Positions 26,218 to 27,977 of a stretch of 64,000 nucleotides of DNA are shown in pieces. A program made the translations under genes and the position numbers. Under the pieces are notes generated by a model. That model made no database searches and was not told the origin of the DNA. It saw only the letters and a list, made by a program, of their open reading frames with translations. This stretch comes from Acidimicrobiia bacterium (GTDB taxonomy: Bacteria > Actinomycetota > Acidimicrobiia > Spongiisociales > Spongiisociaceae). Position 1 is the first letter of the stretch; the number at the start of each line of letters is the position of its first letter. The stretch covers positions 82,865 to 146,864 of the forward strand of contig JBFGLM010000004.1 in the NCBI GenBank assembly GCA_041576165.1, in the 5' to 3' direction.

Positions 26218-26830
26218 TCTGGAATTCGACCACCTGGTGGCCGCGGTCGCAGATCTGTCCACGGGTGCTCGTGAACTGCATGAGCGAACAGGACTGGCTG
26301 CAGTGCCGGGCGGCCGCCATCCCGGCCACGGCACCCACAACGCGATCGTTCCCCTCGGCGCTGGGTACATCGAGCTGGTCGCGATCGAGAGCCCAGTGGA
26401 CGCCGAGACGAGCCCATTCGGGCGGGCAGTGGCCGCCCGCATCGCCACCGGTGGCGGCCTGTTTGCAGTTTGTCTGCGGACAGCGGCGATCGAGCCGGTC
26501 ACCGCGAGTCTTGGGCTCGAGACGGCAGGCATGGAGCGGGAAATGCCCGACGGCACGACGCTTACTTGGAAGCTGGCCGGTTTGGCCGAAGCACTGGATC
26601 GCCGCCTCCCGTTCTTCATCGAGTGGTCCGTGGAGCCGGATCGTCATCCGGGACGTGCCTCCGCCGATCATCGGGTGACCCCCACCGGCATCGCCTGGGT
26701 AGAGGTGCCCGTCGACGCTGCCTTCCTCGCTCGGTGGGTCGGAGCATCGAAACTGGACCTCCGCCCAGTAGGCCCCGACGCGCCCATGCGGGCGGCCATC
26801 AACACGGCCGAGGGACTGATCGGCATCTGA
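26201..26830 (+). CDS. VOC/glyoxalase-like (Glyoxalase_3) protein
   Basis: FDHLV.AV.DL, GGRHPGHGTHNAIVPLG..YIEL, LPFFIEW. Confidence 0.85.
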   Translation: MTPRPDLEFDHLVAAVADLSTGARELHERTGLAAVPGGRHPGHGTHNAIVPLGAGYIELVAIESPVDAETSPFGRAVAARIATGGGLFAVCLRTAAIEPVTASLGLETAGMEREMPDGTTLTWKLAGLAEALDRRLPFFIEWSVEPDRHPGRASADHRVTPTGIAWVEVPVDAAFLARWVGASKLDLRPVGPDAPMRAAINTAEGLIGI

Positions 26831-26874
26831 CCACGGTCGGTTTGCTCTACCCTCTCCGGTGGAGGTGGTGGCCA

Positions 26875-27348
26875 ATGAACGACAACGTCGTCTATCGGTC
26901 CCGGACCCGCATCGAGCGGCTTCGAGGACCCCTGCGCCGGGCGTGGGTGCCTGCCCGGCCCGACCCAATCACCTATGGCGTCCATTCGGAGATCGCCGAG
27001 CACTACGGGGTCGACCCCGAGCAATATCCGCCGGACACGACGACGATCGACTACGTGATCGCAGCTGCCGGCGGCTGACTGACGGGCACCTTCGGGGGCG
27101 CGCTGGAGGCGCGCGGCATCAATGCAAGCAATGGCAACCTCGTCGGTCATGTCGAAGGGCAGGTAGAGAAGGAAGACGGCGTGCTCGTCATCCGCCGTAT
27201 CCACGTGCGCTACGAGCTGGCTGACGTAGAGAACGAGGCACTTCGGACAAAGGCGGAGCGAGCACACGGGCTCCATGCCGAGAAATGTCCGGTGGCTCGC
27301 TCCATCCGCGACGCGATCGAGATCAGCACCGAACTCTTATACGTGTGA
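26875..27348 (+). CDS. OsmC/Ohr-family peroxiredoxin with in-frame TGA (probable selenocysteine, U68)
   Basis: GGAGG RBS; frame reads ...DYVIAAAGG-TGA(27076-27078)-LTGTFGGALEARGI...HAEKCPVARSI and continues to a stop at 27348; TGA sits at the first catalytic Cys position. Confidence 0.8.
27089..27114 (+). promoter_or_regulatory. Candidate bacterial SECIS element
   Basis: GCGCGC(27098-27103)-TGGAG-GCGCGC(27109-27114) hairpin 19 nt after the TGA, G-containing loop; a CC-TTCG-GG mini-hairpin precedes it. Confidence 0.5.
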
Positions 27349-27977
27349 CCTCGCCCGCCGGTCTGGAGCCGAACGCCGACCAGCTTCTGGCCGCCCGGCG
27401 CATCGCGCTGGGTCTCGCCCGCATCGCCTACCTCGGAGACAGGGCAGAAGTGGACACCGCGTGGGAGGCTATCCCCGACCCCGCAGCTTCCGCGCTGTTG
27501 CTGGCGATCGGTGACGCGGTTTCGGGCCCCGATCCGGCCGCGACGCTGGCCGACATCGCCGGCCACCTCCACGACCTCGAATGGGCCGACGACGCGTCGA
27601 CCGAGTTGCTAGGAGTCCGGGTGATCGGCGTTGGGTCAATGGGCGCCATCACACGTCACGTGTTGGAGGCCATGGTCGGGTATGACACTGTTCTGCCCGA
27701 CGTGATCGTTCCCAACCTATCGATTGCTCGCGGGCTCGGATATCTGGGCCTGCGCGTCGAGATCGGGGACATCGCAGCCGCTGAGACTCTCCTGATTCCG
27801 GGCATCGCCCGTCACCGCTACACGGTCTGGACCACGAAGCTGCTGGCGGATGCCGCGGTGCGGGCGCTGGTGAACGGGGCGCGACGGATTTCGGTCGTTC
27901 ATCCTCTAGCGCGGCTGGACGACGAACGGCGGGCTCGCTTCCGGCCACCAGACTCCGCAGTCGAGGTCACTGCGTGA
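27345..27977 (+). CDS. Hypothetical protein coupled to the OsmC-family gene
   Basis: GTGA overlap with the upstream stop; fills the gap to serC; family not recognised. Confidence 0.6.
   Translation: MTSPAGLEPNADQLLAARRIALGLARIAYLGDRAEVDTAWEAIPDPAASALLLAIGDAVSGPDPAATLADIAGHLHDLEWADDASTELLGVRVIGVGSMGAITRHVLEAMVGYDTVLPDVIVPNLSIARGLGYLGLRVEIGDIAAAETLLIPGIARHRYTVWTTKLLADAAVRALVNGARRISVVHPLARLDDERRARFRPPDSAVEVTA

Follow-up and report, generated by a model that had tools for sequence, protein, structure and literature searches.

A conserved in-frame UGA codon in an OsmC-fold gene of an Acidimicrobiia bacterium: a probable selenoprotein

In a stretch of 64,000 nucleotides from an Acidimicrobiia bacterium (assembly GCA_041576165.1, contig JBFGLM010000004.1, positions 82,865 to 146,864 of the forward strand; here called the window), a plus-strand reading frame runs into a TGA codon and then continues, in the same frame, with sequence that resembles OsmC proteins. 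The locus raises the question of whether a single gene is read through this codon, which amino acid would be inserted there, and what the resulting protein would do. Translated with TGA as U, the coding sequence (26875-27348) comprises 157 codons and a TGA terminator at 27346-27348, as read from the sequence and the translation. Its ATG at 26875, a start consistent with the N-termini of the homologs, lies 9 nt downstream of a Shine-Dalgarno-like GGAGG (26861-26865) read directly from the sequence, and purine-rich motifs of this kind also stand ahead of the start codon in the majority of the 12 relatives from the same order. The interrupting TGA (27076-27078), in the context AAAGG-stop-LTGT, is codon 68 and occupies the position of the first, peroxidatic Cys. 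The frame extends for 89 codons beyond it and passes through the motif EKCPVARSI, whose TGT codon (27286-27288) encodes Cys138, the second and resolving cysteine. At the end of the gene, a GTG (27345-27347) overlaps the stop as GTGA and is a possible start of the next long ORF (27345-27977, plus strand), whose frame it shares; that ORF also has an ATG at 27285 and no match in Pfam. The first-pass annotation of this DNA had listed the GGAGG, the ATG, the TGA, the second Cys motif and the GTGA overlap, and all are present where it had placed them. A conventional ORF listing reduces the gene to two pieces, one that stops at 27078 and one of 55 codons that starts at 27181. Residues 69-102 belong to no start-to-stop ORF of the window and yet are the most conserved part of the protein; the most conserved block, LTGTFGGALEARG, directly follows the TGA.

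Every one of the 202 related genes recovered, which come from many phyla, has TGA at this codon. The 202 rows correspond to 180 distinct sequences over 72 nt. Since some of the genomes were reached by two routes, full independence of the rows is not given, and relatives do not count as independent samples in any case. Within the order, the gene is present in 13 of 61 genomes (the genome under study and 60 relatives), and each of the 13 copies contains exactly one internal TGA, in one shared alignment column. A 401-genome sample of the phylum yielded matches in 52 genomes, 46 with the TGA form and six with only a stop-free form (by match rows, TGA in 46 of 56). In a 301-genome sample of the phylum to which genome G455 belongs, 49 genomes match and TGA is present in 54 of 55 rows, the odd row being a fragment that ends before codon 68. 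When species-representative genomes were scanned with an alignment as the query, the best 80 of 580 confirmed loci all carried TGA at codon 68. The record titles of these best 80 loci cover at least a dozen phyla, with Acidimicrobiia, Acidobacteriota, Chloroflexota, Desulfobacterales, Gemmatimonadota, Nitrospirota and NC10 as well as Bacteroidota, Poribacteria, KSB1, Latescibacterota, Binatia, Myxococcota-type and Kiloniellales metagenome-assembled genomes, and include one isolate, Haloechinothrix halophila YIM 93223 (L073). In metagenomes, 80 of the 80 best loci were of the TGA form, even when an alignment of Cys forms served as the query. The counts for the order, for the 401-genome sample of the phylum, for selA and for the hairpin alignment include genomes flagged as unpublished (G043, G281, G293 and G322; for selA also G061, G077, G106, G146, G177, G204, G372, G390 and G397). 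The species-representative and metagenome sets, taken from published records alone, give the same result, and no conclusion depends on the unpublished genomes.

Downstream of the TGA, positions 27098-27114 form a hairpin with a stem of 7 bp (27098-27104 paired with 27108-27114) and the apical loop GGA (27105-27107). The stem, which is present in the minimum-energy fold, starts 19 nt past the TGA and the loop 26 nt past it; in bacterial selenocysteine insertion sequence (SECIS) elements the usual distance from UGA to loop is about 16-37 nt. Here, too, a stem-loop with a G in the apical loop is found shortly after the UGA. Guanosines of the apical loop are named for predicted bacterial SECIS elements in the legend of Fig. 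3 of the 2005 Sargasso Sea study (PMC1088965). The first-pass annotation had pointed to a GC stem with a G-containing loop 19 nt after the TGA; the element exists and is conserved across relatives. The folding energy of the 81-nt stretch was not unusual relative to shuffled sequences (z = -0.91; 38 of 200 shuffles folded equally well), and since the energy alone is not significant in this G+C-rich context, the case for the hairpin rests on comparison. An Rfam scan of 26800-27400 at E <= 10 returned no SECIS family, only four matches at chance level.

The hairpin is written in the codons GGC GCG CTG GAG GCG CGC, which specify G-A-L-E-A-R, residues 75-80. Among 115 distinct sequences, standard pairs occupy 94.7% of 805 pair cells, versus 20-70% when the partner is slid by 1-3 columns. 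Against this stands the shuffle control, in which 2 of 500 shuffles likewise reached the observed percentage, the shuffled mean of 94.2% being close to it because the columns hardly vary. Fully compensatory changes in the main register amount to two cells, a scarcity attributable to the amino acid sequence, which fixes one side of each stem pair. The comparative argument for a SECIS function is therefore built on frozen synonymous sites and on variants that preserve pairing. In the 180 distinct sequences, third-base entropy is 0.75 bits in the Gly codon of the hairpin, 0.26 and 0.37 bits in its first and second Ala codons and 0.31 bits in the Leu codon, compared with 1.4-2.0 bits in neighbouring, equally conserved Gly, Thr and Ala codons, in which all four third bases are used. 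The third base is G in 172 of 179 first Ala codons, 171 of 180 Leu codons and 168 of 178 second Ala codons, in stem and loop alike. For Arg, 172 of 175 sequences use CGC or CGT, either of which pairs with the opposite G, and the alternation between GAG and GAA preserves the pair as U-G or U-A.

Some sequences depart from this pattern. Six from Actinomycetota (L115, L118, L119, L121, L122 and L123; family f28 and others) have GGT GCC CTC GAG GCA CGT, by which the main register is broken and a 5-bp hairpin with the loop CUCGA in place of GGA is formed two nucleotides away, through changes on both arms. This subgroup may represent an alternative SECIS solution for the same G-A-L-E-A-R. In the distant Sec forms L151 and L152, the sequence at the hairpin site is different and pairing seems possible as judged by eye; the same holds for other lineages, in which an alternative pairing of the type GCC AGG to CUGG/CCAG can be drawn. 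The available DNA control consists of nine Cys-form genes from one family (f36), to which the best 80 loci of a metagenome scan with the Cys query added none; these nine vary at the hairpin codons (GCC, GCG, ACG, GCA and TCG; CTG and CTC; CGC, CGG and CGT). G-A-L-E-A-R is also common in Cys forms, and part of the nucleotide conservation is therefore due to constraint on the protein. One and the same RNA stretch would be under a double constraint, imposed by the active-site motif of the protein and by the SECIS element.

The genome bin in which the gene lies also contains the genes for Sec synthesis and insertion that the first-pass annotation had proposed to look for. The assembly (161 contigs) is 96.5% complete and 7.5% contaminated; selA, selB, selD and tRNA-Sec all score above curated cut-offs and lie, in this partly contaminated bin, on contigs other than that of the OsmC gene. 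Both selA (422.9 and 421.9 bits) and selB are present twice, with selA and selB adjacent on two contigs (C24 and C100). The tRNA-SeC, with the anticodon TCA, also occurs in two copies (C1:33376-33466 and C145:1292-1382). Identity between the two SelA proteins is 53%, and approximately 11% of the alignment columns distinguish one tRNA from the other; such divergence means that the bin holds either two systems or a contaminant, and the two sets may come from two organisms rather than from a duplicated system. The selD gene (C1:171385-172317, corresponding to L011:1480-2499, minus strand; 397.3 bits) has one in-frame TGA of its own, in SHGAGUACK. It thus encodes the classical selenophosphate synthetase with Sec and is a second selenoprotein gene of this genome.

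The distribution of selA among the relatives follows that of the TGA form. A cross-check of the tables for the 401-genome sample of the phylum showed that, of the 46 genomes that carry the TGA form, 45 have selA, versus 266 of 401 overall. In the single exception (G039), selA is absent from the entire assembly and the contig breaks off 720 nt from the tRNA-Sec, a situation suggestive of an assembly gap. Among the six genomes with only the Cys form, none has selA; all six belong to family f36, in which selA was found in none of seven genomes. The first-pass annotation had described Sec use in this phylum as patchy. With selA in 266 of the 401 sampled genomes, Sec decoding is common there, not rare.

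The conserved TGA, the hairpin, the Sec machinery, the co-occurrence with selA and the selection on the protein agree with each other and with the initial proposal of Sec at codon 68 with Cys138 as the second redox residue. By comparative evidence, 26875-27348 is very probably one genuine gene for an OsmC-fold selenoprotein, with UGA codon 68 read as Sec. According to the mechanism that we propose, UGA codon 68 would be bypassed as a stop, with the hairpin at 27098-27114 acting as a bacterial SECIS element that recruits SelB loaded with Sec-tRNA(Sec), the product of SelA and SelD, such that Sec is inserted. No hairpin of this type accompanies the second UGA, at 27346, where translation would terminate. 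In the folded protein, Sec68, placed on the long central helix, would attack a hydroperoxide or another oxidant; the selenenic acid formed at Sec68 would be resolved by Cys138 to a selenenylsulfide, which a thiol reductant would reopen. The assignment of Sec68 as the peroxidatic and of Cys138 as the resolving residue follows from the established manner in which two-Cys OsmC/Ohr peroxidases work, and the same source is our basis for the peroxidase chemistry and for the presumed substrate and reductant.

How far the analogy carries can be judged from the fold. Pfam OsmC (PF02566) matches residues 56-153, across the TGA, with 46.8 bits against a cut-off of 27.5. An AlphaFold2 model (mean pLDDT 95.2) shows one compact domain spanning both halves, and in a Foldseek search of this model the top 30 PDB matches were all OsmC, Ohr or OsmC-like proteins, placing it in the OsmC/Ohr fold with a probability of 1.00. 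The matches have TM scores of 0.6-0.8 at 10-20% sequence identity, the best being 2onf, 1lql and 1ml8, followed by Ohr and OsmC enzymes. A search of the PDB by sequence gave a single weak match, again 2onf (E = 0.088), with both of whose Cys residues U68 and C138 align. In the first redox motif, U-L-T-G-T, positions +2 and +4 are Thr and position +3 is Gly, the aligned motif of 2onf being C-L-L-T-T. Seven residues (H37, H43, Y44, T57, D59, R80 and C138) do not vary among 85 sequences. The first 55 or so residues lie outside the Pfam match, and of the invariant residues His37, His43 and Tyr44 are found there, with Asp59 close by.

From the fold, a peroxidase function is plausible by analogy. 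The most serious alternative accepts the selenoprotein and assigns to Sec68 and Cys138 a different redox or carrier role, possibly together with His37, His43, Tyr44 and Asp59. The low identity of 10-20% to characterised Ohr and OsmC enzymes speaks for this alternative, as do the facts that the nearest structures, 2onf, 1lql and 1ml8, are uncharacterised OsmC-like proteins and that the curated peroxiredoxin subfamily models score far under their cut-offs (TIGR03562, OsmC peroxiredoxin, 20.0 bits against 85.8; TIGR03563, SACOL1771 peroxiredoxin, 20.4 bits against 166.15). The set of seven invariant residues also fits such a role, and so does the proximity, in 29 of 202 loci, of a thiol-redox protein that appears with a Sec of its own. 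Arguing against it are the two-Cys geometry and the fold, which are those of the peroxidase family, and the occurrence of Sec in place of the first Cys, which is what is expected of a peroxidatic residue. Nor does any conserved neighbour hint at another activity. On balance, a role other than that of a peroxidase is the less probable of the two, although it merits a tentative place beside the peroxidase reading.

Across the 202 loci no conserved operon partner was found, the largest cluster of neighbours being present in 29. The ORFs that flank the OsmC gene of the window, including the downstream 27345-27977, have no relatives beside the other 201 loci. The commonest neighbour, found at these 29 of 202 loci, is a protein with AhpC/TSA-Redoxin and DsbD_N domains, mostly encoded just upstream on the same strand; it is absent beside the OsmC gene of the window. 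The only copy that was read (L174:450-1478, plus strand) has an in-frame TGA within the motif W-U-P-F-C and is on this ground a second selenoprotein. It may be a redox partner of the OsmC-like protein.

Returning to the identity of residue 68 in the putative selenoprotein, the homologs with a sense codon at this position are informative. The first-pass annotation had named Cys or a conserved TGA in homologs as support for its proposal. Both occur: the stop-free copies of family f36 have TGC or TGT at codon 68 in nine of nine copies from six genomes. Among 84 full-length database homologs, 19 have C at position 68, 61 W, three G and one L; Cys138 is invariant in all 84 as aligned and in the 13 genes of the order. 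TGA is translated as W under genetic code 4 and as G under code 25, and on this ground the W and G records are most likely the same TGA genes, for which the gene caller switched the code on short contigs, apparently since the selenoprotein frame then stays open. In a separate observation, Leu replaces the Sec or Cys of all relatives in P0003 and P0123 (AAAVG-L-LTGTF), two database proteins whose cluster is recorded on six contigs, one of them of 5.86 Mb. We know of no standard code that translates TGA as Leu; in this lineage the Sec codon may have mutated to a sense codon, with loss of the first redox residue.

The database records bear on a second alternative, in which UGA is read as Trp, Gly or Cys through a variant code or near-cognate suppression. 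Public gene callers did assign W in 61 and G in three of the 84 homologs, but this demonstrates no more than an open frame once TGA is taken as a sense codon. True sense-codon homologs have Cys, not Trp. The stop codons of the 13 OsmC genes of the order are TGA in ten and TAG in three, and because the same gene terminates in TGA in the window and in ten of these 13 genomes, TGA is a stop unless the hairpin follows. A non-Sec read-through would also leave the conserved hairpin, the Sec machinery and the co-occurrence with selA (45 of 46 versus 0 of 6) unaccounted for. We regard it as very improbable.

The gene is intact. For 78 pairs among the 13 genes of the order, pN/pS averages 0.41 in the half that precedes the TGA and 0.48 in the half that follows, values that indicate purifying selection on the second half like that on the first; the relaxed selection that the first-pass annotation had envisaged as a sign against its proposal was not seen. 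It had likewise suggested a look at the read support for the TGA. Contigs of four public runs were compared over 26600-27600. Three of the runs, which belong to two studies, each contain one contig that spans the region from 26600 to 27114 or 27121 without a single differing letter, and no alternative letter is listed at 27076-27078 in the public contigs; the assembly may itself derive from two of the runs, which are hence not independent. In the same comparison the summed contig depth of the four metagenome runs rises from about 5 to 140-250 in the bin 27076-27109 and is 55-130 in the bin 27110-27143. Several contigs end, and many short ones begin or end, within 27076-27143. The jump is explained by short contigs of many other organisms that share the stretch, and it seems that the TGA and SECIS stretch, being nearly letter for letter common to many members of the community, breaks assemblies.

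The remaining alternative, a nonsense mutation or assembly error in a pseudogene or else two separate small genes, could appeal to the ORF listing with its fragments and to the NCBI annotation of a KSB1 homolog as a 66-aa hypothetical protein followed by a 90-aa OsmC family protein, split at the TGA, but it is refuted as far as sequence comparison reaches and retains next to no probability, given the position of the TGA, identical in 202 of 202 genes and seen again in independent contigs, the equal constraint on both halves, the conservation of residues 69-102 outside any start-to-stop ORF, and the one Pfam domain and one compact fold that extend across the TGA.

The consequence of reading UGA codon 68 as Sec is mainly a correction of annotation. 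Gene callers cut the gene in two or read through it only by means of a wrong genetic code, and the correction concerns a redox enzyme that, among the Actinomycetota and Acidobacteriota sampled, occurs in roughly one tenth to one sixth of genomes. Haloechinothrix halophila, a carrier in culture whose genome also has selD, would permit the first biochemical test of an OsmC-fold selenoenzyme. What is known of selenocysteine decoding itself is unchanged. The first-pass annotation had spoken of a hidden gene, a description that is apt for the annotation, in which the gene is split or misread, and inapt for the literature, in which OsmC-like selenoproteins have been in print since 2005. The gene belongs to a known kind, in a subfamily that is missed by the curated model and split by public annotation.

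OsmC-like selenoproteins were described from the Sargasso Sea by Zhang, Fomenko and Gladyshev (2005; PMC1088965), where the table rows and legends give three Sec sequences assigned to COG1765, the motif UxxT and predicted SECIS elements. The same source lists ten Cys forms beside the three Sec forms of the Sargasso data and 17 further Cys homologs in other prokaryotic genomes. For the GOS data of 2008, five Sec sequences are tabulated against 161 Cys homologs (PMC2398784), and the family is listed in tables of reviews of 2022 and 2026 (PMC9312934, PMC13188914). As far as these table rows and legends describe it, the family of the marine surveys resembles the present one in its OsmC fold (pfam02566/COG1765), in Sec at the position of the first redox Cys, in the existence of Cys homologs and in a predicted bacterial SECIS element with guanosines in the apical loop. 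It appears to differ in the motif, which is given there as UxxT and is U-L-T-G-T (UxxGT) here, and it differs in the proportion of forms: the tables of the marine surveys contain few Sec and many Cys forms, whereas Sec forms dominate among the closest relatives of the gene at 26875-27348.

A curated NCBIfam model of the same idea, NF041052 (OsmC_like_Se; cut-off 95 bits), shares the fold family and the notion of Sec in an OsmC protein. It did not match the selenoprotein in a protein scan at E <= 0.1, and a search of the genome at E <= 10 gave 12 matches, none of them at the 26875-27348 locus. Judged by these profile searches, the gene is a member of an OsmC subfamily different from that of NF041052, and annotation pipelines that rely on the model would consequently miss it. 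The 12 matches are further, stop-free OsmC-like genes of the same genome (for example C15:39749-40156); one of them lies just above the cut-off, with 95.8 bits, and is a Cys form (AFCMQV ... ARCPVY).

The fold is shared with E. coli OsmC (1qwi/1nye), Xylella Ohr (1zb9), Ta0195 (2onf), MPN625 (1lql) and YhfA (1ml8). OsmC and Ohr are two-cysteine hydroperoxide reductases that use a Cys at the first position, where Sec is found here, at an identity of 10-20%. Classical OsmC/Ohr proteins lack an N-terminal extension such as the present one, with its invariant His, His-Tyr and Asp. These differences allow a further, rather speculative proposal, to which we give about the same modest credence as to a role other than that of a peroxidase: the gene may represent a separate, unmodelled OsmC subfamily, distinct from that of the marine surveys and marked by UxxGT and by the extension with His37, His43-Tyr44 and Asp59, in which Sec is the rule and Cys the exception and the chemistry is perhaps unlike that of Ohr and OsmC. 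If this were true, few selenoproteins of bacteria in soil and sediment would be as widespread as this subfamily and as systematically mis-annotated, and a SECIS element locked to the catalytic-site G-A-L-E-A-R codons would explain why the same 17 nucleotides recur across phyla.
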